A stretch of 62,952 bases of DNA, filler included, from Stramenopiles sp. TOSAG23-6 (GCA_900128565.1; 11 parts of 11 records of this genome joined end to end with filler, not necessarily neighbours in it); one strand, 5' to 3'; positions 97 through 60,598 are shown, counted from the whole stretch's first letter. The notes: a model not told the origin generated them from the letters alone. Numbers and translations: made by a program.

Positions 97-3000
97 ATAA
101 CAGTCACCGATGGTTTTAATCTTTTCCACACCTAGGTCATCCGCAACTCGATCAAACTTTATAAACATCAAATTAAGCATTTTCACTAATTGAACAGCAG
201 AAATTGTTTGAGAAAACACAGTAAAACTGACAATATCAGCAAACAATATTGTTCCATGAGTACGCATTACTGTGCTTGACAGTGCTTCTGCACCACGTCT
301 GAGTTTCTCAAGCATCACACGGGGAATTGGAACTTTACCTAACAGACGATCAGTTTTAGCTTTTGTTTCAAGCATGAGTAATTTTTGATGGTCAAGCATC
401 CATTGTTTCAGGAAAGTTTTACGGTTGTGACGTTCAGCAGAAAAATCAGAAGATATTGAAACCATTGCAAGTGGAATCACATATTCTACAGTAATTGATA
501 TCCAATTATCATACCAATTTTCTCTACTTGAAGCCTCAGCATCTGGTAATTGAGCTTTGTACATTTGCCAATCATTATAACTTCGATGAGCATAAGCCCA
601 ATTACCAGCTGCAATCAATGCAATAGTCACCACGACTCCGTCAGCATGTGGAAGCAAAGTGAACGCATTGAGCGAAAATATCAACAACAAGACAAGGAAG
701 ATATAACTTCTTCCTGTAACTACAATCATCGCTACATGCGAAAATCCTATGAGCAGTACAAGTACGAATATGATGAACCACATAGATCTAAACCATATGT
801 ATTTTGAGAAAATATTTTTTTTTTAGTAAAAAAAAATGTTTTGTTAGGTATGGAATTTTCTACCAGAAAAATATTAAAATTAATTTTGAAAACGTACATT
901 CCACTACATTTTTCCATATTTTCAGTCACAGGGTCAATGATTGCATCTTTTTCTTCACCCTTTGAAGCATCATCAACTGTGCTCTGATTTAAACTCATTC
1001 TACTCTCCATTGAATTTCGTTTTTGTTGTAACGAAATTTCAATTTCATTATTTTCAGGAGATTCTTCATAAATTTCATCCAATCGAAGAGCTTCCCTCTG
1101 AGCTAAATGCATAACTGCAAGAAAGGCGACAATACATGGTGTAACGACAAAGCTCATAGTTCCTTCAGCAAAACGGACATCTGAACTGGACACCATGCCT
1201 ATAACTCCTTTTTTACTTGGCTCATCAATCACATCATAGTATTTATTATTCAAGTACGCTGCCATGGCAACTAACAAAATGTAGTATAATAACCAACCAG
1301 CAGGAGCACTAGAATAACATTGCTCTGCCAAGTAATCTCGGAAATGCTTCTCAATTTGATATAAATGTGCATATGCTTGATCAGCTGCACGGTCATCTGA
1401 ATGCAATGCTTCTTTTCCATTACACAATATAAACCAATTTGCTTGTACATAATAAAAAGCGGCGTGATAAGGTTGAATAAAAGCCTTATGTGCCCTAGAT
1501 ACGGCGCTTAATGATTTATCTTCTTGTTTGTATTTATCTCTAAAATAATCTTCATTAGCACGTTTATCGTCATGTTTACCTTCGCTAGAAGAAACGCTAC
1601 CTCTAACACCCAATTCTATTTCTACCTCGCCACCACCATGACGTGAGTCTCGCACTGTTTCGCCAACAGGCCTTGCTGTTGAAAACTCATCAGATGAACT
1701 ATCAGAATCTGAACCACTCGTCGCGCCTACGCAGAAGAATTTCGCAATACGCCGTTTCCAAGAAGGTGGAGATTTTGTATGTATATTTTTACTACTACCA
1801 GTATTTGAGACAGGAAGATTGTAATTGTCAAAACCATCTTGACTGTCATCAAAAAAGTTGCCATCAAATACGTCGTCAGATGATTGAGTGAAAAACTTTG
1901 AAAATCCTCGACGAACTTTATTTGATGTGGATGTAGAAGTAATTTCATTTGTAGTACATACACTTTCATCATTATTCTTTGAATCTTCATTATCATCAAC
2001 ATGAATCCATTTTGCAGAATTTCGTGAACTAATTGTATCGCCAGTACTCAATATACTCCCAGATCTGCTACCTCCAGTCGAAACGAGGAAGAATGTTTCC
2101 ATTTTACCCTTCCCCTTTACTTCAATTTCTCCACGAGATTGAACATTAAATTGTCCTTCTAATAATGCTGCTGTCTTTGGAGTTATTTGAATCCTTCCCT
2201 TTGGACAGTGACTATACATTCGACTGGCTGTATTTACTGTATCGCCAAACACATCAAAACAAAATTTACTCTTACCTATCACACCAGCAACTGCTTTCCC
2301 ACTGGCAATGCCAATCTTCCAAGAGAGGCCAGGTCGAGTCAAAATCTTTTCGACTATAGCAAGAGACATTGTAGCAACATTTTGAGCATGAAGAATTGAT
2401 GGTGATGGCATCCCGCCAGCAAACATATACACTTTTCCTATTGTCTTTATTTTTTCTACTCCATGTAACGTACACAAACGGTCAAAATCACAAAATAAAT
2501 CATTCAAAAAAGCGTGTTTTTGTCGAAAACCAGCTTCTTTACCCCCGTTTGCAGTTGTAGTCGCAGAATTAATACCAGACACATACGCAAAACCGATAGT
2601 ACAAGTTTCATATTCCATAGCAAGTTCTGTGAAAAATATTTTTTTTTTTTTTTTTTACAGAAAAAAAAAATCGTTAGGTACAAAAATTTTTTACCAAAAA
2701 AAAAACAAAATTGAAATAAATAATGAAAACGTACAACGGTATTACCTGCGTCAACTATCGCTTTCGTGATTTCAGGAGGTAATAAATTATTCAATAATAA
2801 ATCTGCAAATTCCTTTTCCTTTTGCATTGTTTGCATTTGGAGCAAAAATATTGTCAAAAATATTTTTTTTGTACAATTTGTTAGGTTATAAAAAGTCAAA
2901 AAAACAAATATTCGTTTTTTTTTTTGGTTTTTTGGTTTTTTGGTTTTTTTGGTTAGGTACAAAATTTCATAAGAAAAAAAANTAANTNAAAANTNCATTT

Positions 3001-4071
3001 TGAAAACGTACAATTTCTCTAGTCATTTTATGCCCATGTCTTTTTTTTGTGAGTACATACCATAATTGGCCAAGCATAACTACAGAGAATGTACCCTGTA
3101 TTTTGTGAAAATATTTCCAAAATTTTATTTTTTTGTTAGCCGTTATTTTAAGTATGAAATTTTGTATAATCAACAAATGAAATTGAACAACAAAACATTC
3201 TAAAAATTTGTTAGGTAGAAAATTTCGTATGTAAAAAAACAAACATACGAGGTATAAACATCGTTTTAAACGTTCTTTCCAGGTAAATTTATGAGGAGGT
3301 TCAATCCCGACAAAAAACAGAGAAGTTGATGCATATGTAATTAATATCGAAAGTGCACAAAGAGCAGCCATTTTAAAATCAAGACGGCTAAATGTATATA
3401 GTACAGCAACTAGAAAAATTAATACCGTATCGGCCAAACCTAAATAGCCACAAATCATTTCTGCAATCGTTACAAGAAGACCAAAAGAATAAAATAAAGC
3501 AAAGACCGCGCGGCGCTGAGTATGGTAACTAGAGAACCATTGGGATGATACAAACATATAGTATAGTAACCATAATAAGACCATGCAAACAAAAGCAACG
3601 GAAAAAGAAACGACAATTAAATACCCTCCATCTTCGGCCTCGCTCGCATACTTTTTTATGGCGGGGGATGCGATTACTGGAATCGCCAATATAGCCCCAA
3701 GAAGAACCCATGTATACTTTGTCTGATTCAGCCACTTTCGATGGCGATGTCCAGGCTGTTGCTTCTCTTGTTGGGTAGCAAGCCAGGCTTCCACGTCAAA
3801 GTTTTTTTAGGTGGGTAGAAAGAGCGGCATACTGTGCGCGACGGGACCTTTTTCCTGTTTTCGCTGCCAGCCAACCTCCGTCTAAGCTCACAACACCACG
3901 TCGACGACGACTACTGATACCACCACTAGTACTTCCCTGACGACGATAGCCTGCACTACTTCGGCGAGAACCATGGCGGCCTCTTGTAGAGGATAAGCTG
4001 CCGCGTACTTGACTGTGGTTCCCTAATGGTTCAAGTGGTTCAGCAACCATCGAATTAGATATGTTTTGCAT
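97..4071 (-). CDS. Membrane adenylyl cyclase with two class III catalytic domains (TM-cyclase-TM-cyclase), 3'-truncated at contig start
   Basis: VEKIKTIG, IGIASGKAVAGVIG, FDVFGDTVNTASRM in domain 1; TILFADIVSFT, VEKIKTIGDCY in domain 2; hydrophobic TM clusters. Inferred introns 3096-3248 (GT-AG), 2846-3011 (GT-TT), 2622-2734 (GT-TT), 797-897 (GT-AT), <1-96. A +1 frame break near 3796-3810. Confidence 0.85.
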
Positions 4072-4522
4072 ATAAAACACGGATAGTAATGTCTCAATAG
4101 GATTTCACAACCACTGAAATGATGTAATTATTTCAGCATTATAAAATTACACATGGCAATCAGAAAAATTGTGCTTCGATTGAGAATGTGAAGAAGAATT
4201 CTCTGATGATGATGACTGTATTGAGTACCTGTTCTCAATATACCCCTAACCCTTATATGACAGGCGCAGGGCTTAAAAAAAAACATTTTTTCGTGTTTCA
4301 AACTGTGTTGACCCCGACCACGGGTGTTTGATGTCGCCTGTCGATAAGCAAGAATAGATCTGATTCTAAATCTATAGCTTTATATAATATATAGTAATAA
4401 TATCATCAAAAAGTTTGGAGATAGTTGAATACTGCATCCATAGCGTAATTTCAAAACACTGGGGTTGCTGAGCAAAGCAGTATAATTTATTTTTTTTTGG
4501 TGTGTTGTGATTATTATTTACA

Positions 4523-6663
4523 ATGGGATTATGTGTCAGTAAGCAGCAAGACTGGCCAATAGGGACTCTCGATCATTATCAAAAAGACTCAGATTCTGTT
4601 GTAAAATTACTCTTATTGGGAGCAGGAGAATCTGGCAAGAGTACAATTTTCAAACAAATGCAAATATTACACAAGCCCGGTGCTTTTAAAGGTATTTTAT
4701 ATCATCAACAATTATACTCGTGTATTTTTTCGACCCTACATGAAGCATTTTATAATAACTCAAATATACTCTATTTTACTTATTTTTCTAAATACAGGAG
4801 CTTCCGCTAAAGCGTATGCCGATATTATTAGAGGAAATCTGCATAAAAACATGAAAGTTTTAGTCAAGGGTGCAGATAAGCTGGGTATCAAAGTGAATTC
4901 GGAAACAGCACTGAAGCAATATTTTTCAATTGATTCGAGGGGTGAATGGAGAAATGAATGGACAACAATGTTTAAGACGCTATGGAATGACTCTGGAATC
5001 CAAGAGGTGTATTCAAAACGTTCTCTACTTCAAGTGTCCGATTCTACAGCATATTATTTCTCTAATATTGATCGCATCGCATCTCCAGACTATTTGCCCA
5101 CTCAGCAGGATATTCTCCGCGCGCGGCATACGTTTTCATTATGAATTTTTTACTCATTTCGAACTAGTTTTTTTCATAGGAAATTTTGTACCTAACAAAC
5201 AAAATTAAATTATTGAAATATTTTTTTCAATGCATATAGGACTTCAGGAATTGTAGAAGAGCATTTTTTGGTCGGCGAGAATCAAAATGATTTCGCCATA
5301 TTTGATGTTGGTGGCCAGAGGAATGAACGTAGGAAATGTATGTTTTATTTTTTTCAATTTCTAATTTATTTATTTTTCATACGAAATTTTGTACCTAACA
5401 ATTTTTTTTTTTTTACGAAAAAAAAAAAAAAAATTTTTTTCACGAAACAGGGATTCATTGTTTTGATGACGTCACTGCGGTTATTTTTGTGGCTGCCTTG
5501 AGCGAATATGATGAAGTTCTCTATGAAGATCGACATCAAAACCGAATGGTTGAAGCAGTTCAACTTTTTAAAGAAATTGTAAATTGCAAATTTTTCTCTA
5601 AAACGTCAATGATGTATGTTTTATTTTTTTTCAAATTTGAATTTTGAATTTATTTTTTTTTTTATAAAAATTTTGTACCTAACAAATTTTCAAGATTTTT
5701 TTTTGAAATATTTTTTCCAAAATACATATTGTTTCTAAACAAACTTGATTTATTCCGAGAAAAAATTAAAACTGTCGATATAAAGCAACCCCTAGAACCA
5801 TGGAATAAGGACGAAGCCGAGGGAAATGTAATCGATGCTGAATTGGAAGGGACTCTTTCCCAGAGAAAAATTACACAGACTCGTCATAATGTGCGTTTTC
5901 AATAGACTTATATTTTTTATTTTTAAATACGAAATTTTNTACCNACACAAAAAAAAAAAAAAAAAAAAAAAAAAAACGTTTTTTTAATTTTTAATTTTTT
6001 TTTTCGCGCGAAATGTGGTGCCTAATTTTTTTTGTATCATTATTTTTCACAATACATGGTTTTTTTATGGATTATGACGGAGGTTGTGACGAAAAAGCTG
6101 GACTAAAATATTTTGAAAAATTATTCCGTAAACAAAACAAAAATCCAAACAGACAAATTTTCACGTATGCAACTACAGCAACGAATACAGAAAATATCAA
6201 ACATGTACGTTTTTTTTTCATACGAAATTTCATACCTAACGTTTTTTTTTTTCATCATTTCATCATTCATTTCAAATTTATTTATTTATTTTCAAAATAT
6301 TTCTTACTTTTAATTTTTTTTTTTAAGATATTGAGTTTTCTCATCATCATCATTCATTCATTTCAAATTTATTTTTTTCTTTTAATTTCAATTTGTTTTT
6401 TCAATTTCGATTTTTTTTTAATTTTTAACTAACAGATCAATCAAATTTTGAAATATCTTTTCACAGAACATGTATTTGAATCCGTACGTCAAACTTTAAC
6501 TGAAGATGATTTTAATGATATGTATGTTTTATTTTTTTAATTTCGAATTTATTTATTTTTCGTACGAAATTTTGTACCTAATAAATTTTAGTTTTTTTTT
6601 TGAAATATTTTTCCAAAATACATGGGTCTAGGAGGTACGGATAACCCCATGCACGCTTTGTAG
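4523..6663 (+). CDS. Heterotrimeric G protein alpha subunit, 8 exons
   Basis: MGLC lipidation start, [56 protein letters not shown], rebuilt across introns 4692-4797, 5128-5235, 5338-5450, 5614-5727, 5891-6057, 6205-6471, 6522-6623. Confidence 0.95.
5128..5235 (+). other. Non-canonical intron, AT...AT (G-alpha intron 2)
   Basis: ATACGTTTT start, GTACCTAAC motif, ends CAATGCAT; removal restores switch-I R-x-R-T-S-G. Confidence 0.75.
5614..5727 (+). other. Non-canonical intron, GT...AT (G-alpha intron 4)
   Basis: GTATGTTTT...GTACCTAAC...CCAAAATACAT; removal restores SMILFLNK. Confidence 0.9.
6205..6471 (+). other. Non-canonical intron, GT...AT (G-alpha intron 6), skips a CAG 5 nt upstream
   Basis: Removal restores NIKHVFESV; splicing at the CAG would frameshift. 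Confidence 0.85.
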
Positions 6664-6773: not shown

Positions 6774-7382
6774 TCATTTTCCTTTTTGCATTTCATAGAA
6801 CAACATATAAGCGTCGCGACCAGCCTGAAGTACTTCCGTGTCACTGACAATATATGACGTTGTATCAGAAACGAACATCCACATAAATTTATTTTCTTGT
6901 TCTGTCGAATGACATGCAGATTTTTCTTTTGGTAAAGAAATGCGGCGATATGTCATGAAATGTCCACCTAATGCAGAGCCTACGTGTACTATTACCGCAA
7001 TGAGATCATATCTTGAAGCACAACTACTCTTACAATAAAATCCACCATCGCAAAATGGGGTGATATCAAGTGTAGATGGAAAGTTGACAGATAATTCTAC
7101 TTTCTGAGAGTTATCAAATTGACACCGTTGTAGGTGAAAAACTAAAACTCGAGGAGTACATGTTTAGAAAAAAAATATTTCAAAAATTTGTTTTTTTCGT
7201 TAGCTACAAAATTTCCTAAAACAAAATAATAAATTTGAAATTAAAATAAAAACATACGAACAATCAAGAGTTGTTTTGTGGCACAACGGCGTACTGGCTT
7301 TGTTTTAGTACTTAACTTCTCATTATGCCCAGGTAACATTGAATTTTTCTCCTCATTATGCCCAGGTAACATTGAATTTTTC
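6774..7382 (-). CDS. Ubiquitin-specific protease, C-terminal part (USP30-like His box), 5'-truncated
   Basis: KQLLIVR|TPRVLVFHLQR, GGHFMTYRR, WMFVSD, AYMLFYE; GT...AT intron 7160-7257. Confidence 0.85.
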
Positions 7383-7482: not shown

Positions 7483-8116
7483 AATAAAAATATGAAAATA
7501 TAAAAAAAAAAACGCAATTTCAAAAAAAAAAAAAAAATTGTAGAAATATGATTTTTAGGTACAAAATTTCGTACGAAAAAAAAAATTCTTTATTTTTGAT
7601 AATCTTCTATAGCAAAACCAACGATTCAAAATGAATATTTCGTTCAATATGGAATATACCGGTCGACTAAAGGTAGCCTATCTGATTGAATAAAACTTCA
7701 GTTCTATTGCGTAGGATAGTCTACCGCGAACACGGGACAGTCTAGTGGCTTGTAATTAATCACTGCGAAAATATCCAAGTATCTCTGAAGTACCTCCAAA
7801 TAAGCAGCTCTTGGAGCTTTACCACGCGTGTCAACTGCTTCCTTTCTTAGAGAATCTTGCGTATTGGGTCGATGTGAACAGAAGTTCCTTTGTGAACAAT
7901 AGCGTTTTGTTTGATCCTTCTGGACAATAATCTCCATTTCCCAAATTAATTTTCTGTTTGTTGTCACATTTTAATAATGATTTTTTCGGTACTTCAAGAA
8001 AAATTTCGTTTTTAGTAACGGATATTTATGTCGCATTTTGGTACGAAATTTTGGTATAGATTTCAAAATCTCAAACTGATTTATCCACAATTTCTTGAAA
8101 ATCTCCGTTGAAACGA

Positions 8117-8210: not shown

Positions 8211-8235
8211 CACAAGCAAGTACACAAGCAAGTGT

Positions 8236-9381
8236 ATGAACATGTCCACGAACATGCCCAACGGTAATGGCGCTAATGGATGCGTCAATAGGTTGGAAAC
8301 GTTACTAAGAAAGTGCGATCCTGAAAAAACTGACCGATATATACTGTCAAGCTGTTCAGTCGATAAGTTGCGCGAAATACAGAGTAGCCTATGTGAACTA
8401 GCGCACGAAGTTCGCCGCCAATCAAAGCACAAAAAGAAAAAAACGCGAAAAAAAAGAGCATCGTACTTATCTAGGGCTGATACTGCGTTACTCTATATCC
8501 GTGGAAGACTGAATGAGCTGTCCGTCAACTCAAATTGCGTAAGTTCAAGAAATTTTTATCAATAATTTTTTTTGTACGAAATTTTGTACCTAACGAATTT
8601 AATTTTTTTTTGAAATATTTTCTCAAAATACATGAAAATTGTATTAGTCCAACAGCAACTAACCCTAAAACCCCAACAGCAACTAACCCTAAAACCCCAA
8701 CAGCAACTAAAAAAACCCCAACTAACAAAAGAGGGTCTCTTAAAGGGTTAACACCAGAAAGGCTACTCTCGTCACCGTGGATTTTTTTTTTAATATCTTT
8801 TTTTTTTTTTTTCATGCAAAATTTTGTATCTAAAAAAATAAAAATTTCAATATAGATTAAAAATACAGGAGAAAAAAACGAAGATATACAAATGAAATAA
8901 ATGCAGCAGCAGCAGTATCATCAGTAGCAGCATCAGTAGCATTCGCAGCACCACCACCAAAACGTAACGTAAAACCAAAACGTAACGTACGGTTTCTTTT
9001 TTTATTTTTTTATTTTTTTTACATATTTAATTTTTTTCAATAATGTTTTATTTTTTTCTAAATTTTATACCTAACCTAAAAAAATACAAGTTTAAATATA
9101 CATTCAAAATATATATCTTGGAACGTTTTCGTCAAGCTCGCCAAAATAATAAAAACAAGAACAAAAAAAATAATAGTCCAAGAGTACCTGCTAAAAAACG
9201 AGTTAAAGGGTTAACTCCAAATAGGCCAACGTGGGTTTTTTTTAATATCTACGTTATTTTTTTTCATTCAAAATTTTGTATCTAAAAAAATAAAAATTCA
9301 ATATAGATTAAAAATACAGGAGAAAAAAACCAAGAAATACGAATGAAATAAATGCAGCAGCAGTAGCAGCATCAGCAGCAG

Positions 9382-9420
<39 letters not shown>

Positions 9421-12400
9421 TATTACCACCACCACCACCACCACCACCACCAAAACTTAAAGTACGGTTTCTTTTTTTTTTATTTTTTTATTTTTTTTTA
9501 CATATTTATATTTTTTCAATAATGTTTTTTTTTCTAAATTTTATACCTAACCTAAAAAAATACAAGTTTAAATATACATTCAAAATATATATCTTGGAAC
9601 GTATTCGTCAAGCTCGCCAAAAGAATAAAAACAAGAACAATCCATCTAGTCCAAGAGCGCCTCCTAGAAAATTTGAAGATTTCCTTGTTAGTCCACTTAG
9701 GATTAAAAGGAATGATCCAATTAGGAGGGATGGTCCACTTAACGTTAGGCGACGTATAAACGTTAGTAGGGTTCCATCTTGTACGTTTTTATCATCCTGA
9801 AAAAAAATTTTTTTTTAAAAATTCATACGAAAAAAAATAGTACCTAACAAAAAACATTTTTAAATATATAATTCAATACTACATGTAATGGAACAAACGT
9901 CTCTTCAGAAGAAACTAAACCTGTAGCTGCGCACGTATCTAAATCTGCACCTGTTGTTGCTGCTGTTACTTCTGATAACGATAGTAGCTCTGATTCATCG
10001 GATTCCGATTCTAGCTCAGATGAAGAAGAAGAAAATAAACATGTAGCTGCGCATGTATCTACCAATGAAGAATTTACTTCTGAAAAAAAAAAAGTACGTT
10101 TTCATTTAAANTTTTTTTTTTANTTTCNTTNAAAANTTTTTTTTTTTAATTTTAATTGTACCAAATTCCATACCTAACCCTAAAAAACAATTCAAATATT
10201 TTTCAAATAAAATGACCTTGGCTATTATGAGAATGCAGCGCAAGATCTGGCAACTTCGCTGCGTGATAGTGGAGCATCGGATGAGCAGATCTTGCATGAA
10301 GTGGATATGGCAGTTGCGATAGCGATGTCGCAAGCGCAAGCTGTGCCGGACGCTGGGGGGCTCCCTAATGATTCGAATAGTTGTTTCATGAATGCTGTCA
10401 TGCAATTATTGTCGAGAACTAGAGAGCTTCGATCTGCCTATTTTGATAGACCATATCATCAAGGCGATCAAGACAATGAAGTGGTAAAACTATTAGTAAA
10501 AGAAGTTTCTGGGTACCTAAATGGTACAAATGAATCATGTTTAACACATATTCATGAAGTTATGAAACAACTTCAATTTATACTGTTTAAACAAGTTGGT
10601 GATCAAGAAGATGCTTTTGAGACGATTATGGAATTGAAAAAAAAATTGAGTATACCTATGAATGTTAATTTTGGCGTTATTCACCAACAGAAGACAACAG
10701 TAACTGTAATGAAAGTACTCAAAGATGTATGTTTTTTTTTTTCAATTTTGATTTTTTTTTCGTACGAAATTCTGTACCTAACAATTTTTTTTGAAATATT
10801 TTTCCAAAATACATGAAGACAAAAATGGCGCATTTGAATATAAATATGAAAATTACCCAAACGAATTATTGAAAGAACATTTTCTAGATATTCCAGTAGA
10901 AAAGATTCAACCAATTAATCTTGATGATCCTAATTCTAAATTGTATGAGTATGTAATTTTAGAAGGCGAAAAAATAAAATTTACATGGACTATATACAGG
11001 AAAGGCACTATCGAAAATTGTATTGATCCTCTAAATATTCCTTTGAATGACGACACGCCACAAAATTTTTCTTTTGAAAAATTTGTAAAAGATTCTGCAA
11101 AAGATAATCCCCGCAAATTATTAAGCGGTTTCGGATCTTTATTATCAGATGAAAATTGCGAAGAACTCAGATTTGATGATATATGTCTTAGAGAGATACG
11201 CATAGCTCAGCTGATACAAGATCTAGACAAGCTTAGTTTACAACTAGAAACTTTGTATAATCAATTTGAACCTTTGAATGGGAATGTATGTTTTAATTTT
11301 TTTTCAATTTTGAATTTTTTTTTCGTACGAAATTTTGTACCTAACAATTTTTTTTGAAATATTTTTCCAAAATACATATGAATTATTTGAAGAAAAGAAA
11401 ATGTTTTTTTTTGTGGAAAAAAGAAACCTTTGGTGGAAAAAACAACATATCTTTGGATGAACATTTGAATAATGTTCTAGAAGAAGTTGAAAAATTCATG
11501 ACAAGTGAAGCATTATATAATTCGGCGAATTTGGAGGGTTTGCAAACACAACGTGAGAATGTGGAAAAAAACGTTGATGAACTTTTAATAAAAATACATC
11601 GATTTTTTAGTATCACAGCTAATCTGAAAACAACAAAAGATGATGTTGTTAGACCGTTGGACTATTATATTGAAGATGGAGGAAGTTCGTTCGAATGTAG
11701 TTCATTGGGTATTTTAATCACTGTGGGACGTTTTAAAACAAAAACGAATGATGCTGGAGATTTCGTAGAAAAAAAAATACATACAAAGACAAAATTTGAT
11801 GATGTGCAAATATCATTAACATTTGATCAAAGTGGTATAAAAACACATGAACTTACAGCTTTTATTTCACATATCGGAAGTACTTCATCTGGTGGTCACT
11901 ATGTTGAGTATCAGAGAAAAGAAGCTAACGAAAATCCAACTGATGATTTTTACGCAAGATGTTATGATGATTCACGGGTAACTGAAGTGTCAAAGGAAGA
12001 GTTTTTAAAAAAAGCAGCAGAAGGGTATATTTTTTATTTACGCCCAATTCAGATTAACAATGTAAGTGGTGGCTATTTTTTTTTTACTTTTCATTTGCAA
12101 ATTTCAAATTTATTTTTCTAGTAAAAATTGTATTTCTAACAAAAAAAATATTTTTAATATTTTGCATCACTATATGAAGAAAAAACAAAATCAGATATTG
12201 ACCGTCCTGTACAAAACTCAAAGCTGAAAGCACTCAACCTTGTTATCAGAAAGGCACTTCCCGCTGCAGCTGCTGACACAAATGGAGCTAATGCAGGTGG
12301 TCATGTTGCTGCAGTCGCTGATACTGATAATGTTGCTATTGCTGTCGGAGATGCTGCCGGTGCTGCCGCTGACGGGGATGAAGAAAAAACAAAATCTGAT

Positions 12401-14648
12401 ATTGAGAAATTTGCGAATCGTCGTGATGCTCTTAGTGATGATATTAATGAATCGAAAGATAATGTATGTTTTGCTTGGTTGTTTTAAATTTTTCTAATAT
12501 TTCGTGATTTTTTTTTTCATACGAAATATTGTACCTAACAAAAAAAAACAATATTGAAATATATGTCTTTACAATAAATCAGATAAATATCGATGCTAAA
12601 CGTTTAAGTCGTCTTAAGACAAGAAAAACCCGAGAAAAACAAAGTCGTCCTAAGAAAAAAAAAACCCAAGAAAAACAAAGTCGTCCTAAGAAAAAAAAAC
12701 CCGAGAAAAACAAAGTCGTCGTAAGAAAAAAAAAACCCAAGAAAAACAAAGTCGTCGTAAGAAAAAAAAAAACCCAAGAAAAACACATTCGTCAGAAAGA
12801 AAAAAAGAAAATAAAAGAAGCATCAGTACCAGCAACACCAGCACCAGTGTAAGTGAATGACCGTTCATTTCAAATTTATAATTTACAATTTTTTTTTATA
12901 CAAAATTTTGTACCTAATAGAAAACCAAATTAATATTCTAACAAAATAACAGTATAAAAAATTCATCGTCATCGTCATCGTCCGCTTTTGAAAGTCCTTT
13001 GCCATTGCCCTCTTCAAAATCTTTCCATGTTGAAACTTCATCTTCTGATACTAATTATGATGAGACAAAGAAAACAAAGAAGAAAAAAACAAAAAAAAAA
13101 CCTGAAAACAAAATTGAAGATGAAGACCCTAGCTCTACGTAAGTGATCATTATTCATTCCAAATTTACAATTTTATTTTTTTTTTCATACGAAATTTTGT
13201 ACCTAACAAAAAAAAAATATATTTTAACAAAAACAACAGTGAAAATAGTACTGATACTTCCTCTTCTTCTTCTGGAACTTCGTCTGATGATAACCTTGTG
13301 GTTGAAGCAAATGGCGAAAAATATGTTTTGAATGACGATTTCAAGACAAATTTTACAGAAGACAGAGATGAGATAACTATCAAAACAGGAAATCTTAAAA
13401 ATAATTGGAAGAATTTCACGTATTACTACAATGTAGAATATTGTGAAAAGCGAAATAAATATAGATCAGTTTTTAGGAAAAATACGCATTTCGACAAATC
13501 CATAGACGCTGCTAATTTAAGTGATAAAATTGCAAGAGTTTATAATAGAAAAAACTCCAACAACAGTAACAACTCTGCCCGAAAAATTNACGATNGNAAA
13601 AAAAAANTTNAATNAAAGACCAAGAAAAAATAACCCTTATACTGGATGCACATACAATGAAGGAACTGGTACATATTCTTATAGAATACAATCTAGAGGA
13701 GAAACACCCATAACTAGACATGGTTTTGAAACTATTCAGGCTGCTGCCAAAGCTAGGGATAAGAAGGTAAAACGTCTTCAAACTAATAAACCAATTGGTA
13801 GTGTGAGACAAACCTTCAACTCCAAAGGTAATTTAATTAAATGCACACCTGCAACAACAGAAGAAAAAAGGTATGTTTCATTATGAATTTTTTACGATTT
13901 TTTTATACAACATTTTGAACCTAACAAATTACCCTTTTGACATATTTTTGTACATTGTGGAGTGCATACACGCACTGTTAGGCGAGTTAAGGCAGCACAA
14001 AAGTCTATAGATGATATAAATAAAGAGACTAATAGAAAAAAACAAAAGAAAAACAACAACAAAAAAAAAAAAAGTAACGCAATAAAAAAGGAAAACAAAA
14101 GAAGAAAAAAATATAGTTTTCGAGAACACCAAAAATGTCCGGTTCGAAAGCCTATAAATGAACGTGTTGATCTTCAAGCTGCGGTATGTCATGATAAGTG
14201 TTATAAAACTGTGACAAAATATTGTAGAGATATATGTCAATTGTGTCATGGTCATAAAGAATGGTACAAATATGACCATAATGACATTGACAATCAATTA
14301 GTGATGGAACACTACATAGAGCTGCGTCACTATTTTCCTATCCTTGAATATAGTGACAAAGCTTGTTGGGATGCTTTGTATTATAAAGGAATAGTAATAA
14401 TGTCCTCTAAAATGAATAGTTGGAAGCTAAACAAGTGTCGACCCAGACATCTTGTTCCCAGAAAAATCTTCATAAGGATGAGTCTAAAACAAAAAGCTTT
14501 GGAGTACTTTCGATTAAAGTACTATTTTGATAATAGAAATAAAGAGGGATTTGAAGTTCAAAACTATGAAGATGATTATGATAAAGACGGAAACATGAAG
14601 GATGAGTGTAAAGAGAAAATTAAGTCATTAATTAAGCATTTGGAATAA
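8236..14648 (+). CDS. Large ~15-exon gene: low-complexity N-terminus, UIM-like motif, USP catalytic domain, Lys-rich repeats, AP2-like domain(s)
   Basis: Cys box GLPNDSNSCFMNAVMQLL, QEDAFE, His box HIGSTSSGGHYV, YDDSRV; EQILHEVDMAVAIAMS; YTGCTY...YSYRI...GFETIQAAAKARD. Exons chain in frame through family introns (e.g. 8539-8633, 10727-10814, 11286-11377). Frames near 12650-12780, 13590-13615 and the last intron are uncertain. Confidence 0.7.
8742..9640 (+). repeat. Tandem duplication of a two-intron exon module (8742-9164 and 9205-9640)
   Basis: Near-identical intron and exon sequence in both copies, e.g. AATATAGATTAAAAATACAGGAGAAAAAAAC and CATTCAAAATATATATCTTGGAACG. Confidence 0.9.
12622..12790 (+). 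repeat. ~33-bp coding tandem repeat, about 5 copies
   Basis: Repeated AAAACCC(A/G)AGAAAAACAAAGTCGTC(C/G)TAAG. Confidence 0.85.
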
Positions 14649-14945: not shown

Positions 14946-14989
<44 letters not shown>

Positions 14990-15013: not shown

Positions 15014-16930
15014 ATGTTTTGGTCTAGTCGATAATGAGTCGGTGTTAGATTTATTAGAGTTATTAGGTGTACTACTACATGATTCATTATTTTGTTCAAA
15101 AATGTTTTTTCCGTCACGTCGTCTATTTGTACAATCAAGAGAACTCCCACATATATTGTGAAAAATATTTTTTTAATTCGTTAGGTACAAAATTTCGTAC
15201 GAAAACAAAACTAAATTCGAAATTGAAAAAAATAAAACATACGTCTTTTTTTTTGTATATTTTCATCCTTTTTCTCACGTGATCGACTCTTTCGACTAGA
15301 TAATTGTGAGGTATCTGAATCATTTTCAACTTTCATATTTTTTGTTTTTTCTGTTGTTTCTGTTTTTTCATTTTTTTTCATTTTTTTTGGTATATTTGGT
15401 TGATATGGATCCACTTGCCAAACTAAAACAAGGCCATCTTCACCACCAGTAGCTAAATAATGCCCAGAATGAGAAAATTGCATAGTATAGATTGCACCTG
15501 AATGAGCTTGAATTTTTTGTATTTCACGAATTCTTGGCCACTCTCGAACAGATTTATTTTCACAATGTGTTCTTTTATAAGAAAATGTTGGGTCTCGACC
15601 CCAAGCTCTTGCTTCCTCAGTTGACCAATTGGCAGGTTTGTCCGCACCAAATAAACGCCCAAATGCAGAAGTTCTAAGAGACCACTTATTTTGAACTCGA
15701 AAACCTCTACTACGAGCGATAGGACTATCATTTTTAACATTTTTTCCAGATCCACGTTCAGAATCAGTTGATGCGCTACGATTTCGTGATTCAACTTCAT
15801 CACAACCTTCTAATAAAGCAATTTCTTCTTGTGATCTTTTTTTATCACGTTTTGTAAAAGTAGAATATCGATGTAATGGTTGATGTTTTTCAACATCATT
15901 AATATGAAAGCGTATCTGCTCATCTTGATCAGTCACTAAGTATTTAGGGTCAACATTATCAGTACCGTACATGTATTGTGAAAAAACACGAAATCACAAA
16001 AATAATTGTTAGGTACGAAATTACGTACGAAAAAAAAATAAATTCGAAATCCATAATGGAAACGTACACACCTTGGCTTTCATGTAAACAATCATTCATG
16101 TCTTTATCCCGTTTTTCAGAATCAATACAAACTTTACTTTCCTGTCTTTGCAATTTGTGTTTTTTTTCAAATTGACTATTTTTTCTAGGAGATACTGGTG
16201 GTGGTGTATCACTCTTTATCTTAAATGGACTATTTTTTCTAGGAGATACTGGTGGTGGTGTATCACTCTTTATCTTACTATTTTTTACACGGTTACTATT
16301 TTTTTTAGGTGATACTGGTGGTTTACCTATACAATTATGTATTGGCTTTTTTTGTGTATGACTAGCATCATGACGTTGTAAAACTTTTACACTACTATTT
16401 TTCCGTAGAGCTACACCACTTGTAAATAAAGAGTCAATTGTGTCACTACTAGTAAATGAAGAGGCCGTTGCATCTCCAGAATTTTCTGAATGATGTGTCG
16501 AAAATTCTTGATCGTTTTTCACGCTCTTATTTTCCCTCTTCTCATTCATATTATCACGAACAGATACACTTTGATCATTCAAATCGCTCTTGTCTATTTG
16601 TTGAATGTCACTGTTGCTGTTTTTTTTGACGTAATAAGTATGAAATTCTGTAAGTGAGACAACGCCATCCTTGTCTTCGTCTATATTATTAAAAAGTTCT
16701 GTCAGTGACATTTTCTCATCTGCCGTTGCATTAGGTCTATTTGATTCAAATGAATCACGTGGTTTATGATTATTAGACGAGGTTCCATTCAAAGGACGTT
16801 TCTGTGCTTTTATACTTTTAGAACGACTATCTAAATTGTTTTTGTGTGTTGAAGCTATATGAGACTCAGATTCAGACTCTACCTCCGACTCTGCGGATTC
16901 AAACTCATCAAACAAATCATCTCCATCCAT
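15014..16930 (-). CDS. WDR44-like WD40 protein with an N-terminal EF-hand-like motif, 3'-truncated
   Basis: DEFESA N-terminal motif, DEDKDGVVSLTEF, QKIQAHSGAIYTMQFSHSGHYLATGGEDGLVLVW; GT...AT introns (e.g. 15971-16067). Confidence 0.75.
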
Positions 16931-20325: not shown

Positions 20326-20329
20326 ATAC

Positions 20330-34290: not shown

Positions 34291-34321
<31 letters not shown>

Positions 34322-43247: not shown

Positions 43248-44537
43248 ATGGAACATTTGTCGACGGAGACTAAAGATATAGTGGAACCATGGGTAAATTG
43301 TTTTATTCCATCGGAGGATAAACTTCTTCCAATTGTACTGTCAGTGCCTCATGGAGGAAGTTTAAAACCAAACTCTGTATTAGACAGAACTTCTGGCTGT
43401 CAACATCCAGACGAGGGAACAACGGAGCTTTCAAGATCAATATTTATGGCTCTATGTAAGAACAATAAGCGGAATTTTCAACCATGTCTTGTGCAACATT
43501 GTCTTCACCGATCAAAAATTGACCCCAACAGAGACTTGGATTTTGCTGTTGACGTAAAGTCTTCTTCTGTCGTAGAGTCTTGGCATCTATACCATGCAAA
43601 TATTAGACGAGCTCTTCTTTTATCAGTTAAAATTCATGGTTTTGCTTGCTTAGTTGATGTTCATGGGCAAGATCATAGAAATGATACGACTGAACTAGGC
43701 TATGGCTTGACGAGTTTCGAGTTGGTTCTTTCTGACGAAAACCTTCAAAATCGCTGGGTTACTAACTCTAACTCTACACCTCATCACTTTAACTCTGAAG
43801 GTCATGTTGTGCAATCAAGGAATGGAATGTGTTTTTCACTACATAGTCTTTTACACAATGGAATTTCAGTACCCGAAATTGTTCGTGGAGAATTTTCCTT
43901 GGGAGCTTTACTAGAGAAAAATGGATTTAAGTGTACACCAAGTATGTTGTATTTTTTTTAATTTCAAAGTTTTTTTTCATACGAAATGTTGTACCTAACA
44001 AAAAAAATCAAAACATCAAAAAAAAATATTTTTTTACACTACATGCCCACGTCTGCCGAAACCTGTATCACTATCAGATGTAATTGTTTCATTAACACAT
44101 GAACTTGATAATGAGATTATCGACGGTGGCAATTTAGAAACCCTTTTAACTCGTCATGGTTTTGCCCCTAGTTTGAATTTTGCGAAACTTTTACGGAATA
44201 ATATTATGAATGACATTAGTAGTGTTGAATCATTCTCAAATAGTAATATAGTTGATACTATATCCCACGGAAATAATTCGTTAGGTACGAAAGTGGGTAC
44301 AAAACCAAAACATTCAATTACGAATTTGACAAATACCACTCCTCCGAGTGTATCCCCATTTGACTATTTCAAAGGCATTTACTTCTGGGGTGGATATACA
44401 TTACAAGCCTATACTTGTCGCAACGCTATACCAGGAAATGTTGGCCCTCTTACTGAGTCAGATTGGACTCTAAAAAACCCTAACCTTAACCCCAATCAAT
44501 TACAATCTGTTCATACTACAAGAAATAGTTTTGAGAG

Positions 44538-49884: not shown

Positions 49885-51996
49885 TTATTGAGTTTCTAAT
49901 ATTTTTGTTACAATACCAGCCGCAATGTATTGTAAAAAAATATTTTTTTTTTGTAATTTTTTTGTTAGGTACAAAATTTTTATAAAAAACCAAAAAAAAA
50001 AAAAATTAAAAATTAAAAAAAAAATAAAATGTACAACTCATTTCGCCAAGAGCCTCGCTGGATGACAACTTGGTGGGTTCCTCCATTTGCCGTTGGTGTT
50101 TTGCACGAGATATGAGACGGAGAATGGACTGTAACTGGTGCGCATTTGGACGTACCAATCATTACTGATATCGTGCTATATTCCGAAGTATGTGTACTTG
50201 TACTAAAATTAATTGGGCCTACCACACCAATACCATAAATATCTAATGTTTCACCGCCATAAGGTGAACAACCTGTTAGATTTGGATAAGAGGTATCTCG
50301 GTCAACTGTCGTGTCACAACCAATCATATATTTAATAATTGGACCAGGATATGCAAATGAATTGATGACTAAATTATTATCTAATGCCACTACCTTACGT
50401 GCAGATGCGCTTTTATTTTGAGGATCTGTTGATGTGTATCCTGTACCCGCCTGTCCATAATGATTATTACCAAAACAATACAAACTACTATCCTTCATAA
50501 TTGCGCATGTACTATCTACCCCAGTATCAATATCAACAACATCATTGAGTAATTTTTTTGTATCCTCATTTGTTATCCAACATAATGGTTTATGATATTG
50601 AGAATCAATTCTCTTGATATCATCCAACATTTCCTCAGGAAAAGTCGGACCATTTGAGTAATTTTGTTCATCGACGCCACAATCTGTATCAGACATATAC
50701 ATATCACCCCAACATCCAACATTACCATTAGCAATAAGAATGCATCCGCCTAAATCACCAGAACTTATTTTTATAGCACGGTGGGTTGCTGAAAGCCATG
50801 TATTTTGGAAAAATATTTCAAAAAAAAAAATCTTTTAGGTTTTTAAGGTTTAGGTACAAAATTTTTTTACCAAAAAAAAAAAAAATATATTCGAAATAAA
50901 AAAAAATAAAACATACATATCCTTGGAGTTGCATAATGACCTGCTCCGGATATTAATCGAATTTCACCTCCTTCATATAAAACACTACCAAAAATATGGC
51001 TTTTAGCAATACCTCCAAGATACTGAGTGACTTGAATTGCTTTCAGACCTCCAATCCACATGCAAGTGCTTTGATCACATGTATCAGGCTTTATTTTTGA
51101 TGCACATAATGTATAGTTTGCAGACGTACATTTACTCCCTACTGGTGTACCTCCAGATGTTTTACACATATTTCCTCTCGAAGAACATGAAGTAGATGAG
51201 ACATGAGACGGTGACGTTTCACATTTCGAACGGTTTTTTGATACGCATTTTGTCGTTGACGTCGCTGCAGTGACTGATGTTCCTGAGAACCCGGTACCTG
51301 CAATTTCTGACCAATAATCGTAGATGCCCTCTGCTCCAACAATTTCAATATCAGGATTAAGCATACAGAAAACACGGCCTGCATCAGCAGAAGATGGACC
51401 ACTACGAATTACACAAATCCTGGAACTATTTGGCGGTGATATCTCTTTTACATAATCTAATTCTATTGTATAGGGAGAGCCAATACTAGAAGTACCAGCA
51501 GGTACATGTATTATAAAAAAATATTTTCAAAAAAAAATTCAAAACTTTGTTAGGTATGAATTTTTTTTTTTTTTTTTTAATGGAAACCAAAAAAAAAAAT
51601 CATAATGAGAATAATCAAAACATACATCCCATGACTTACTCTGACGAATGCTCAACCCTTTCGCGTTTGTCGCTGGTAACAGATATATTGGCCTTTGAAA
51701 TGGATACTGTATCCATGTAAAATCATTGGTATTTGTTGTTTGTTGCAGTTTATCACCTGTAATTGTCTTAACTGTTGTTTGTACCACATGTGGATAAATC
51801 TTTTCATCTGCTTCTCTTGCTGGAGCAAAACCACCACCACCTCCACCACCACTATCCCCACCACCACTATCTCCACCACCGCTATCTCCACCACCGCTAT
51901 CTCCGCCTCCACTATCTCCACCACCGCTATCTCCGCCTCCACTATCTCCACTATCTCCACCACCACTATCCTTACCACCACCACCACCACCACCAG
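49885..51996 (-). CDS. RCC1-like repeat plus IPT/TIG-domain protein with a Gly/Asp/Ser-rich segment, 5'-truncated
   Basis: TGVDSTCAIMKDSSLYCFGNNHYGQAG; SPYGGETLDIYG...VMIGTSKC...ISCKTP; three GT...AT introns. Confidence 0.7.
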
Positions 51997-52096: not shown

Positions 52097-52151
52097 TCGT
52101 ACGAAATTTTGTACCTAACGATTTTTTTTGAAATATTTTTCCAAAATACAT

Positions 52152-54283
52152 GCCCTCGTTTAATTGGAAAAGGGGGTGTAAATATTAAAAAACTTAGAGA
52201 GGATACTAAATGTAGTATTGAATGTGATGCTAAAGGAAATGTGATGTTTAAAGGACAAGAAGATGTTATCAAGAATGCTGTCGCTGTTGTGACAAATTTT
52301 GTAGGTGAAAATCAAATATGTAGTGATGATAACCTTGCGTTGAAAATCTTTGTGAGTAAAGGTCATGTTGCATATATTATTGGAAAAAAAGGAAGTCAAC
52401 TGAATGAATTTGAAAAAAAGTATAATGTAACTATCGAAATTAATCGCAATTCGGAAAAGAGTGGTGCTACAATTTATGGTAGAAAAGTGGACACTGAAGC
52501 GTGTAAATCCGCCATTATTTCATATTTACGTCAGACAGTTCGCGTTACTCACGATATAAAAATTTCTGCCAAACAAATGCATTATATATTTGGTAAAAAT
52601 TTAAGTGGTATTGGACAACTTCGTAGTTCTTCTGGTGCTCGTATTGATACTCAGCTGAATGGAAATGGCAAAGAATATAACATACGTGTGAATGGCACAG
52701 AAATGTCTGCTGGTTCTGCTCTTGCTGCTTTAAAGGCTGCACAAAATGGAAAAATGTCATCTTTAGTACGACTTGTTTCCCCAGATCATCTTTCTCTTTT
52801 ACGTGGCAGTGCTGGTGGAAATCTTCAAAAAATACGCGAAGATTGCAATGTATCATTGACGCTTCAAAATGATGAAGAAATGTCTTTATCGTCTATCTTA
52901 GTTGTTGGTTCTACAAAGGGTGTTCAATCAGCAGTTCTAGATGTTCAACTTTTATTAAGTTTCTTTTTCCCTGATAATTATGCTCGAATATCTTTACCAT
53001 CTACCTTTATAAGTACTTTGTTTCATGATAAAGCAGCAAAATTGAAAGCATATGAAGAAAATGGTTGTAAGGTACAAGTGGATTACAAGGGAAATTCTTT
53101 ATGCATTCAAGGGTCAAAAGAAGCTGTGTCGAGTGTTAAAAGTACTGTCCATGCTGCATTGAAAGAACATGCTTTTGAAAACGCAGAAATAAAAATTAAT
53201 GATATTGAGAGTATATCTCTTTTAATTGGCCCAAAAGGTGCAAATATTAAAGATATGCAAAACAAATGTGGAGCTCGCTTTGATATATCTCGTGAGAATA
53301 TGATTGTATGTATTCGAGGTAAACGTGAACAAGTTGAAGAAGGTAAAAAATTAGTCCAAGAAACATTTGATCGTTTTAAAAAATGTCGTTTTTCTATGGA
53401 CATTGAAACAGATTTTGCTCCTGTACTTATTGGAAAAGGTGGTTCTACCATACGAGATCTACAGAAGGAAACTGGTTGTAGGATTCAAGTTGACAAAGAA
53501 TTTGGTGTTGTTATTGTACGAGCTCCAATGGGTTCCGAGAATAAATTGGTTGCTGCTCGTGAATTAATTGATGCTATGCTTGTAGAGTATAATGAAAGAC
53601 GTCATCGTGAAATAATGGAAGCTACTCGTGTTGAAGAAGAAATTCATGGACAATCTGATAAAAATGAAAACACACGTGGAAAGCAAGAGCAGCGACGTAA
53701 TTTCGATCAAAGAAAACAACATATACCACAGGAAAAAGTTGTTTTGAAAGCACCTGCTGATGCTTTTGATAATATCCCTCTTGGTTCTTCCCAGTCGGTG
53801 GAATCTTCAAGACGTCGGCGAAGACAGAATAAATCATCGGAATATGATGATGATTCTAATGCTTTAAATATGCTCAAGAGAATGGGTGTTAGTGTTAACG
53901 AAAATTCCTCAAATTTTCAAAACCATAATCTCACTCATGCTAGTGGTAGCAATATGGATTCTAGAGGCCAAGATGCATTTACACCACCTCCTTATTTATT
54001 GAATAGAGACCAATTTAATACATACGATAAAACAAATACTACGCAAATTTCTGGTATTTCTAATACTGAAACTTCTGCTCCTTCTTTACCCCCTGGATTT
54101 GGACTGACAGGTGTGACACCCAATAAAACTCAACATGTACGTTTTTATCATGAATTTCTAATTTAATTTTTTTTTCGTACCAAATACCGTACCTAACGAA
54201 TTTCAAATTTTAAAATAATTTTTACAACACATGAATCTAGTTACTACAAATCATCAACTGGAGGTTACAGTGTACGACTGTAA
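52152..54283 (+). CDS. Multi-KH-domain RNA-binding protein (vigilin-like), 5'-truncated
   Basis: LIGKGG, IIGKKG, LIGPKG, LIGKGG GxxG loops; GT...AT intron 54137-54232. Confidence 0.85.
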
Positions 54284-54602
54284 AACTATGTTTAATTTTC
54301 AGGTATTTCTTGAAAATAAAATATACCAGAGTAATGCCTTATTGATTTTTCTCCAAAGCAATTGATTTTTTTTTTTTTAATATTTATTGCTGTTTGAACA
54401 ATGTTTGTTTGAATATATATATTCAATAATGACATTATGACAATATATGAGAATTTTTTTTTTAACAGTTACATTTTGTCAAATAACATGACTACTACAC
54501 TACTTATACGTAGCTATAGTTACCCTACGCGTTTCTCACTACTGTAAGATTTCATCAATAAGGATGCTTCATTGATATATACCATATTGAAAAACGTATT
54601 CC

Positions 54603-59368: not shown

Positions 59369-59421
59369 GTACGTTTTCATCATGAATTTCTAATTTATTT
59401 ATTTTTTTCATACGAAATTTT

Positions 59422-59521: not shown

Positions 59522-59576
59522 TTTTTTTTTTTTGAAACTAAAAAAAAAAAATTTGAAATATTTTTCCAAAATACAT

Positions 59577-60436
59577 GAACCTTTGAATGGTGGACATCCT
59601 GTGCTAAAATGGTACAAAGTTCAGCCTGCGAAGAGAGGCCAGAAACCAAAAGGAATGATGAAATTGGCTGATGTTACGATACAACGAGCGGATGAATTTA
59701 ATCGAGATGAAGAAGTTCATGTACGTTGTTATGAGTACTATGACAATATTTTTTTTTTTTTTTTTCAAACTTCAAATTTTTTTTCATACGAAATTTTGTA
59801 CCTAACCAAAAAAAAATCCAAGAAAAATTAATTTTTTTTTTAAATATTTTTGTACAATTTAGGATGGGAATACAAAGAAGCATATCACTTCAAAATGTTT
59901 TCGAATTGTATCACCTGATAAATCAAAATGTTATTTAATAAATATACACCCATTAATGATCCCAAGTCAAAATGCATATAGGTTTTAGCTTTTTTCAAAT
60001 TCGATTTTTTTTTTATAGTAAATTTCGTACCTAACAATTTTTTTTAGATTTTTTTTGAAATATTTTTCCAAAATGCATTACTTGAAAGAGATGATTGGAT
60101 GCATAAAATCGAAGAAGCTGCTGCACAATATGAAACTGACGTACGTTTTTTTTTTTTTGGTTTCATACGAAATTTTGTACCTAAGCCAAAAAGCCAAAAA
60201 AAAAAAAATTAAATCTAAGAAAAAAAAATATTTTAGAAAAAAATATTTTCACACAACATATGATCATGATGTAAAAATTGCACAAAAAAACTCAACTCAA
60301 AAGAGCACAGAACGTCTATCCCAACGTCTAGATATCGTTGTAGGGTTAGGGTTACAAGATCGACTTCGTCCAAGAGAGAAACAAATTATATGGCAAAGTC
60401 GACACGTATTTTTTCATACGAAATTTTGTACCTAAC

Positions 60437-60474
<38 letters not shown>

Positions 60475-60598
60475 TTAAAAAAAAAAATTTTTAGCTAATT
60501 GTGTATACTATATATACTATTTATATCTTGACAACAAAGCGTTTGGTTACTCAGTCCGCTGCATTACCTAAATTTATTGAGTCCGTTGATTGGATTAA
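59577..60598 (+). CDS. Internal fragment of a PI3K-like protein: PH domain followed by the start of the PIK helical domain
   Basis: LKWYK...KPKGMMKL...FRIVS...ERDDWMHKIEEA; LRPREKQIIWQSRH...AALPKFIESVDW; AT...AT intron 59978-60078. Confidence 0.7.

Follow-up and report, generated by a model that had tools for sequence, protein, structure and literature searches.

Genes and introns in the window

The DNA analysed here (the window) is a stretch of 62,952 bases from Stramenopiles sp. TOSAG23-6 (GCA_900128565.1), in which 11 contigs are joined via runs of N and a short spacer; the first contig measures 7.4 kb, three are of about 1.1 kb and the others of about 7.3 kb, and the GC content is 23-41%. 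Its genes are ordinary eukaryotic ones, among them those for a G-alpha protein, a membrane nucleotide cyclase, SF3A3, ATG9, an ArfGAP, a USP-like protein, WD40, RCC1 and KH proteins, fumarase and enoyl-CoA hydratase. These genes are interrupted by a family of short introns that mostly end in AT. Few features of spliceosomal introns vary as little as the 3' AG, and it is this intron family that is the subject of the present analysis. When sequencing runs were searched for words shared with the first contig, only seawater metatranscriptomes were returned.

A family profile (nhmmer), seeded with a MAFFT alignment of 20 copies, gave 69 matches, which correspond to 60 loci after merging and are confined to the first 9 of the 11 contigs, in agreement with the first-pass annotation of this DNA, which had put the number at about 60-70 introns on nine contigs. 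The internal 25-mer TTTCRTACGAAATTTTGTACCTAAC occurs 43 times at no more than 3 mismatches and is absent from 100 shuffles, and GTAYGTTTT occurs 35 times against 2.67 expected. The 20-copy alignment revealed likeness over the whole copy length, including the conserved blocks CAATTTCGAATTT and TTTGAAATA, which sit outside known splicing signals. As the shared sequence reaches far beyond any splicing signal, the copies belong to one proliferated family. Its host genes are unrelated to each other (G-alpha, SF3A3, cyclase, USP, WD40, RCC1 and KH proteins among others). At five contig ends or more, the sequence breaks off within a copy, as expected of a high-copy repeat that breaks assemblies, and 559 and 614 contigs from two seawater RNA runs match the element at 90-99% identity, the depth of the window's exons being 3-6. 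For 29 of 38 copies the nearest relative is on another contig, at 70-86% identity, while two local pairs reach 95%; some pairs across contigs are 82-86% identical, and the median pairwise identity is 0.65. In 9/38 cases the nearest copy shares the contig, against 5.1 expected (P 0.08).

The ends were first defined on 40 copies bounded by coordinates, the first intron base being that of the conserved GTAYG; six further copies raised the set to 46, over which the consensus was counted base by base, and two more to 48. The consensus reads AT|GTAYGTTTT ... TACCTAAC ... T-run-CAMAATACAT|G and comprises four blocks per copy: a 5' GTAYGT followed by TTT, a palindromic TTTCRTACGAAA, a branch-like TACCTAAC, and a T-run followed by CAMAATACAT. 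The nine 5' bases are G44 T46 A43 Y (T24, C19, A1, G2) G45 T42 T46 T42 T42, and the 3' end consists of the T-run (-16 to -12) and then C A M A A T A C(31) A(42) T(39). The upstream exon ends in A (33/46) and T (35/46), the dinucleotide AT closing it in 27/46 copies against a background of 9.8%, and G opens the downstream exon in 29/46. Median intron length is 114 nt, and TACCTAAC lies a median of 40 nt from the 3' end. The branch module TTTCRTACGAAATTTTGTACCTAAC is tandemly duplicated, two or three times, within at least five introns (2846-3011, 23969-24169, 27383-27541, 31451-31693 and 34517-34658).

Intron termini and restored protein motifs

The 40 copies bounded by coordinates comprise 33 GT-AT, 5 GT-AG and 2 AT-AT introns, and all 48 copies comprise 36 GT-AT, 5 GT-AG, 2 AT-AT, 2 GT-TT, 1 GT-GG, 1 GT-GT and 1 GT-AC. 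The canonical 3' YAG is thus not a property of this family, as AG closes 5/48 copies and AT 38/48, which bears out the earlier proposal that most of these introns end in AT. Independent contigs from the seawater runs span 5696-5727 without a listed difference at 5726-5727, the AT end of a G-alpha intron; the AT end is therefore not peculiar to the assembly. We also applied a frame test to 30 copies, in which the upstream phase and the downstream frame are independent of intron length. The longest downstream frame was found at the motif-defined 3' end in 21/30 copies, compared with about 10 by chance. Among the nine misses, one reflects a 5' site taken at 3244 rather than 3248, and 3248 fits; four have short downstream exons, one of which (32840) was confirmed by homology; and the remaining four fit with the cut at the family register.

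The G-alpha gene, read with the proposed junctions, is gapless against two homologues across four family junctions in conserved motifs. Its first intron (4692..4797, +, from the gene model) is GT-AG and carries no profile match. Downstream follow, all on the plus strand, an AT-AT family intron (ATACGTTTT...GCAT; 5128..5235), at whose junction ILRARHRTSGIVE is gapless against the homologues; the GT-AG copy of RK|WIHCF (5338..5450; frame and homology), which serves as the register anchor; the GT-AT copy of SMI|LFLNK (5614..5727; frame and homology); a GT-AT copy with 5' GTGCGT (5891..6057; coordinates, frame and gene model); the GT-AT copy of NIKH|VFES (6205..6471; homology); and the final intron, also GT-AT (6522..6623; gene model). 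The three named motifs agree with the homologues. A search with G-alpha exon 2 returned no transcript-derived identical protein, the best match being 41% identical over 96% of the exon and another 60% over 55%.

Likewise, the SF3A3 model is gapless against an independent homologue (P0009) across conserved motifs, including WLYKLHGL and EYEDSEGNV, and both WLY|KLHGL and HGM|RCLG agree with it. The introns concerned, all on the plus strand, are a GT-AT copy with three branch modules (31451..31693; coordinates, homology), a GT-AG copy (32039..32190; frame test, homology), the GT-AT copy of WLY|KLHGL (32341..32459; coordinates, homology), a GT-AT intron of HGM|RCLG that contains TACTAAC and lacks a profile match (32573..32712; homology), and the GT-AT copy of EY|EDSEGNV (32840..32962; coordinates, homology). 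One public record, the EukProt coding sequence (CDS) P0008, matches the first SF3A3 exon at 99% identity. 'MAST3' is part of its name, and together with the seawater runs this hints at a MAST-3-type marine stramenopile. P0008 takes other junctions: it misses 18 residues, including a zinc-finger Cys pair, and reads HDM and EYVY for HGM and EYED, with gaps and substitutions that fall exactly at the SF3A3 family junctions. Since P0008 loses or alters conserved residues, the protein comparison indicates that the current public gene model is wrong at those introns and that the GT-AT junctions are the correct ones. The first-pass annotation had listed SMI|LFLNK, NIKH|VFES, RK|WIHCF, WLY|KLHGL and HGM|RCLG together with R|TPRVL of the USP-like gene; those of G-alpha and SF3A3 hold up against homologues, and R|TPRVL (GT-AT intron 7160..7257, -, exon end TC, bounded by coordinates) is present as an open reading frame. 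A search with the USP exon for transcript-derived identical proteins gave no match.

As to P0008 itself, this record appears mis-spliced at four or five junctions (window 30353-33031, +). It also drops an in-frame low-complexity stretch of exon 1, a stretch that the homologue is without, too.

Position of the 3' cut

We then asked what marks the 3' end. An unused AG lies between the branch motif and the intron end in 15/40 copies, and in three of them, ending at 6471, 23243 and 32712, an AG merely 4-5 nt from the end is skipped (5 nt upstream in the first two and 4 nt in the third). Use of the near AG at 6471 or 32712 would truncate G-alpha or alter a conserved Gly of SF3A3, respectively. These skipped AGs imply that AG does not mark the 3' end, and the AG-independent choice suggested earlier is supported by the three copies. 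A 'first AT' rule does not apply either, because an average of 5.75 AT dinucleotides is passed over.

Four copies are out of frame at nearby AT or AG, and a weight matrix restricted to positions -18 to -3, which ignores the terminal dinucleotide, placed an in-frame cut in each of them. These are the GT-GG copy 13871..13960 (+), cut ...TTGTGG|, where this is the sole in-frame cut (687 nt); the GT-TT copy 2846..3011 (-) with two branch modules, cut ...CAATATTT|, likewise the sole in-frame cut (339 nt); the GT-TT copy 2622..2734 (-), cut ...CAGAACTT|, where using the AG at 2627 would break the frame; and the GT-GT copy 39194..39289 (-; matrix and junction comparison), cut ...CAATATGT|, which is equally GT-AT if cut at 39291/39196. 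A fifth, the GT-AC copy 27383..27541 (-) with two branch modules, ends ...AAATATAC| when aligned by hand to the 3' motif and keeps the frame too, at +2 of the AT. For intron 2622, four junction variants were compared with 150 cyclase homologues, and TT was best in 52 of the 88 informative cases, the others in 9, 14 and 13. A PDB search with the 37-residue cyclase exon yielded only a weak sGC coiled-coil match (E 1.2).

Such cuts suggest that the 3' cut may depend on position within the conserved 3' motif and not on AG. This position rule is weakened by several findings: it rests on four or five copies; a cut 3 nt away would also be in frame; in 2622, 2846 and 39194 the last two exon bases equal the last two intron bases, so that the mRNA would be unchanged with an odd 5' cut, and 39194 also admits a plain GT-AT reading; and the choice of 3' ends by the matrix alone is noisy, with 24/34 informative cases in frame and several picks inside introns. 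Given the in-frame alternatives, the equal mRNAs and the noisy matrix, we consider the case for and against the position rule to be about evenly balanced.

Further copies of the family

The remaining copies are spread over the other genes and contigs. A GT-AT copy in the cyclase gene (797..897, -) is in frame with a downstream open reading frame of 753 nt, and a GT-AG copy at 3096..3248 (-) is bounded by coordinates and fits the frame. GT-AT copies for which both the frame test and the coordinates agree are found on the plus strand at 8539..8633 (5' GTAAGT, exon end GC), 9462..9590, 9781..9884 (exon end TT), 10094..10213 (AAAAT end, Ns inside), 10727..10814 (near-consensus), 12464..12579 (AAAT end), 36609..36763 and 43942..44044 (exon end AA), and on the minus strand at 15971..16067 (exon end GT), 22991..23114 (AAAT end), 23243..23343, 23969..24169 (two branch modules), 28044..28146 and 51506..51625. 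The near-consensus GT-AT copy 11286..11377 (+; frame test and coordinates) is 95% identical to that at 10727-10814. Coordinates bound the GT-AT copies at 22438..22547 (-, 5' GTTTGT), 26900..27048 (-), 49925..50034 (-, 5' GTACAT) and 54137..54232 (+) and the GT-AG copy at 27584..27707 (-), for all of which the frame test is uninformative, as well as the GT-AT copy 15151..15242 (-), for which it is tied. Coordinates are joined by the matrix for the GT-AT copies 22726..22824 (-) and 50798..50916 (-), and by the profile for 22186..22279 (-), a GT-AT copy 3 nt off a contig end. The later additions to the 48-copy set include two GT-AT introns on the plus strand, one at 36370..36482 with 5' GTATCT in the WD40 gene and one at 60141..60259. 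A GT-AG copy at 59721..59862 (+) is supported by the frame test, and the AT-AT copy at 59978..60078 (+) by an open frame through three exons.

Besides, the profile detects partial copies: 5' parts at 1..96 (-), cut by the window start, and at the contig ends 44671..44734 (-) and 59369..59421 (+), and 3' parts at the contig ends 37245..37298 (+, CCAT) and 52097..52151 (+, ACAT). A further 3' part ending in ACAT opens a contig at 59522..59576 (+), as seen from the sequence at the contig start. A copy at 34517..34658 (+; profile) has two branch modules of a CCAAAC variant and an approximate 5' end, and one at 23614..23814 (-; profile and matrix) has a clear 5' site and a putative 3' end ACAG.

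Both A-starting introns (5128-5235 and 59978-60078) end in GCAT rather than ACAT, and the latter has a 10-nt direct repeat, CAAAATGCAT, across both junctions. At 8987..9114 (+) lies a GT-AT intron with the branch motif ATACCTAAC (frame test and coordinates), 95% identical to its twin at 9462-9590; the exon-plus-intron unit at 8987-9590 recurs about every 475 nt, through duplication within the gene.

Discussion

On balance, we favour the view that these sequences are real spliceosomal introns of a single proliferated, introner-like family, removed by a spliceosome of the major type, with the 3' cut set by motif position. The intron signals make it probable that the major-type (U2-type) spliceosome acts here. 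The 5' sites start with GT, tolerate changes at +3 and +4 (GTATGT, GTACGT, GTAAGT, GTAGGT, GTGCGT and GTTTGT all occur) and keep G at +5 in 45/46 copies, and a free +4 next to a near-invariant +5 G is the pattern of U1/U6-type recognition. The candidate branch motif TACCTAAC, at its median of 40 nt from the 3' end, lies within the 10-60 nt usual for a U2-type branch and is followed by a pyrimidine run. Introns of the budding-yeast type read GUAUGU ... UACUAAC ... YAG; the family shares with them the 5' hexamer, nearly the same branch heptamer and a similar branch-to-end spacing, and differs in the extra C of the branch motif and in its 3' AU. TACTAAC itself has 5 matches in the window against 6.46 expected, one of them within an intron.

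According to this proposal, the intron would be removed from just before GT to a fixed point in the 3' block, which would be occupied by AT in about three quarters of the copies, by AG in about one copy in ten, and occasionally by TT, GG or AC. An altered recogniser of the 3' end would also favour AT at the end of the upstream exon, and the branch-recognition stretch of U2 is predicted to carry one extra G, complementary to UACCUAAC, and the U1 5' end an A in place of the C that faces exon position -1. The AT|G context of the introns mirrors the canonical AG|GT...AG|G, with T for G at both AG positions, and is compatible with two readings. The first is a changed shared recogniser; for comparison, U1 of fission yeast pairs both at the end of the exon and at the 3' AG. 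The second is insertion, be it through reverse splicing or through an element that prefers AT|G targets. We also entertain, tentatively and as a somewhat doubtful extension, that the splice code may have shifted from AG to AU at both places (exon ...AU|GUAYGU...CAU|G instead of ...AG|GT...AG|G), with one shared recogniser, perhaps the U1 5' end, U2AF35 or a Prp8/U5 pocket, having co-evolved; the site of the second step would then be measured from the 3' motif and not read as a dinucleotide.

A number of observations weigh against this overall picture. When four seawater RNA runs were compared with window 2996-5938, no joint across any intron was seen, only repeat-to-repeat joints, and one contig of RNA run X1 runs unspliced into G-alpha intron 1; as that intron is an ordinary one, the libraries would contain pre-mRNA or DNA. 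A single base separates TACCTAAC from the U2-type branch consensus and likewise from the U12-type one, and TTT is conserved at +7 to +9 as in U12 introns. In a test for target-site duplication, the dinucleotides matched 25 times, compared with 21.6 in shuffles (P 0.044), an excess that comes entirely from three odd-ended copies; no clear duplication was found across the junctions and no transposase in the window. Searches of metagenome contigs and viral contigs found no related locus, and no intron-free site was seen, a 25-nt motif having 0 matches in JGI metagenome contigs and an 18-nt motif 0 in IMG/VR viral contigs; P0008 matched 109 word stretches in metagenome contigs, without any relative. 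Lacking a clear duplication, a transposase or an intron-free site, mobility is deduced here from the similarity of the copies alone.

Could the 5' ends be misread, so that these are AT-AC introns shifted by 2 nt (ATGTAYG...AC)? AT does precede GT in the 27/46 copies mentioned above, and for AT-ending introns at such exons GT-AT and the shifted AT-AC give the same mRNA. The other 19/46 copies, without an upstream AT, would start with arbitrary dinucleotides, and in the shifted register at 5338 the conserved Trp of RKWIHCF becomes Gly; this GT-AG copy restores the Trp only in the GT register, just as the first-pass annotation had argued when using it to fix the 5' register. The GT register is favoured on both counts, and a shift is very improbable. 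Comparably slim are the chances that nearby canonical GT-AG pairs are really used, or that removal is not spliceosomal (DNA elimination or structure-guided excision). P0008 does offer a GT-AG alternative at each SF3A3 junction, spliced RNA was not seen, and the intron ends are imperfectly inverted (ATGTATGTTTT against ATGTATTTT), weakly recalling inverted repeats; the canonical alternatives, however, delete the 18 conserved residues with the zinc-finger Cys pair and turn HGM into HDM and EYED into EYVY, and the signals are classic spliceosomal ones. Moreover, RNAalifold predicted 0 pairs on the copies, six single folds were no better than shuffles (z +0.14 to -1.29), the GUACGA/UUGUAC hairpin of the palindromic block shows no covariation, and Rfam searches gave nothing at the gathering threshold in the window, with no small nuclear RNA (snRNA) there, and two chance-level matches only around two introns. 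The absence of a consensus structure, of folding beyond shuffles, of covariation and of an Rfam family argues against structure-guided removal or self-splicing. Euglenid nonconventional introns, which combine variable borders with a stable end-joining structure, differ from the family in both respects, as its borders are uniform and no consensus structure was predicted.

A transformed minor (U12-type) spliceosome, with snRNAs co-evolved to GTAYGTTTT and TACCTAAC, has more to recommend it. Relaxed 3' dinucleotides are a U12 hallmark, GTATGTTTT agrees with GTATCCTTT at 7/9 places, and to the conserved TTT is added one copy with GTATCT. The available part of a study of Physarum polycephalum (10.1101/2020.10.12.336362) describes U12 introns with mass gain, extended motifs, inverted-repeat-like ends and relaxed 3' ends, non-canonical ones including GT-AT (17%) and AT-AT (8%), and a U12 snRNA co-evolved with a changed branch motif. 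The Physarum introns differ in their 5' RTATCYTT and in a branch TTTGA 10-12 nt from the 3' end, neither of which is found here, and the same source defines the U12 branch TTCCTTRAC as lying within about 45 nt of the 3' end. In the present family, CCTAAC is one base off the U12 branch, at a median distance of 40 nt and with a T-run. U12 branches, which go without a pyrimidine tract, usually lie much nearer the 3' end than 45 nt, and no canonical U12 motif rises above chance in the window: RTATCCTT has 5 matches where 4.08 are expected, and family introns account for none of them, so that the U12 5' consensus is absent as previously stated, and the family instead has GT at +5/+6. The occurrence of GTAAGT, GTAGGT and GTGCGT with a freely varying +4 is again of the U1/U6 type, and a switch would presumably require matching changes in U11 and U6atac. 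We thus regard removal by a U12-type spliceosome as unlikely. Similarly unconvincing is the notion that the copies are old and immobile, their likeness stemming from long, strongly selected splicing signals or gene conversion. It would sit well with the lack of a clear target-site duplication, of a transposase in the window and of a predicted consensus RNA structure, and with a median identity of only 0.65. Against it speak the conserved blocks outside known signals, the tandem branch modules in at least five introns, the assembly breaks inside copies and the cross-contig pairs of 82-86% identity.

Known kinds of introns, namely introners and non-canonical introns, are here combined as an introner-like family with mostly AT ends. 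As far as the accessible portions of the papers cited below go, introners of Micromonas, Aureococcus, dinoflagellates and others (PMC9860276) resemble the family as high-copy, short, similar introns across aquatic-protist genes that bring their own splice signals, have inverted-repeat-like ends and in some families also lack target-site duplications; theirs are GY-AG, whereas 3' AT predominates here. A curated introner survey admits AG or AC 3' ends only (PMC12130899), and 'MAST' (for marine stramenopiles) does not occur in the portions of either survey. Amoebophrya (PMC7789003), another marine protist, has repeated introns whose borders are non-canonical and whose junctions are spanned by short direct repeats, but these borders are very diverse, with inverted repeats of 8-20 nt and predicted hairpins, and U1 was not found; the family here follows a single, uniform consensus, its 5' site is a classic GT, its branch motif is strong, and it lacks a stable fold. 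In Fritillaria borealis (PMC13326754) most introns break the GT/AG rule and are handled by the major spliceosome, the 3' ends being read by altered U2AF paralogs. That organism is an animal in which both ends are non-canonical and the factors were tested biochemically; by analogy, an altered U2AF is a plausible model for AT recognition in the present family. Introns of this kind, in MAST or in other stramenopiles, were not described in any paper that our literature search found, and the main text of a paper on MAST single-cell genomes, its supplements excluded, contains neither 'splic' nor 'canonical' in the part at hand.

If the interpretation is true, a free-living lineage whose common introns end in AU, their 5' site and branch motif being otherwise of textbook form, would be a natural experiment on 3'-site choice in the second catalytic step. 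If the AG to AU reading is true, most genes of this organism would currently be mis-annotated. As the 99%-identical public SF3A3 CDS lacks a zinc-finger segment, catalogues, gene counts and reference libraries of uncultured marine grazers are likely distorted. The family also adds a case on intron spread, with no clear target-site duplication and yet a marked AT|G insertion context. The earlier designation as the dominant intron class in this genome is limited to the 63 kb of the window.

Additional observations

With regard to spread, a module variant in which CATAGTAAA replaces CATACGAAA occurs at 31482, 31550, 32122, 32893, 36696 and 24091 among 43 modules, 5/6 of these being on one contig. 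This clustering hints at local spread or gene conversion, the overall nearest-neighbour test not being significant. Lone branch modules without a recognisable full intron are found at 46333-46366, 60409-60443, 18587-18621 and 7549-7586, some of them probably non-coding. A 1126-residue open frame at 54591-57971 (+) has only a weak endonuclease/exonuclease/phosphatase domain match (E 1.3e-6), while at E 0.001 a reverse transcriptase was not matched; it was not adopted as the mobilising enzyme of the family.

A telomere-like 11-mer, CCCTAACCCTA, for which 0 occurrences are expected, is present 15 times, 10/15 on one contig, mainly within window 30156-36936 and also at 45668, 46572, 49483, 58166 and 60341. 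Most of its copies are located in open reading frames and translate as NPNP or TLTL, two of them in variable parts of SF3A3, and they look like short interstitial telomere-repeat insertions.

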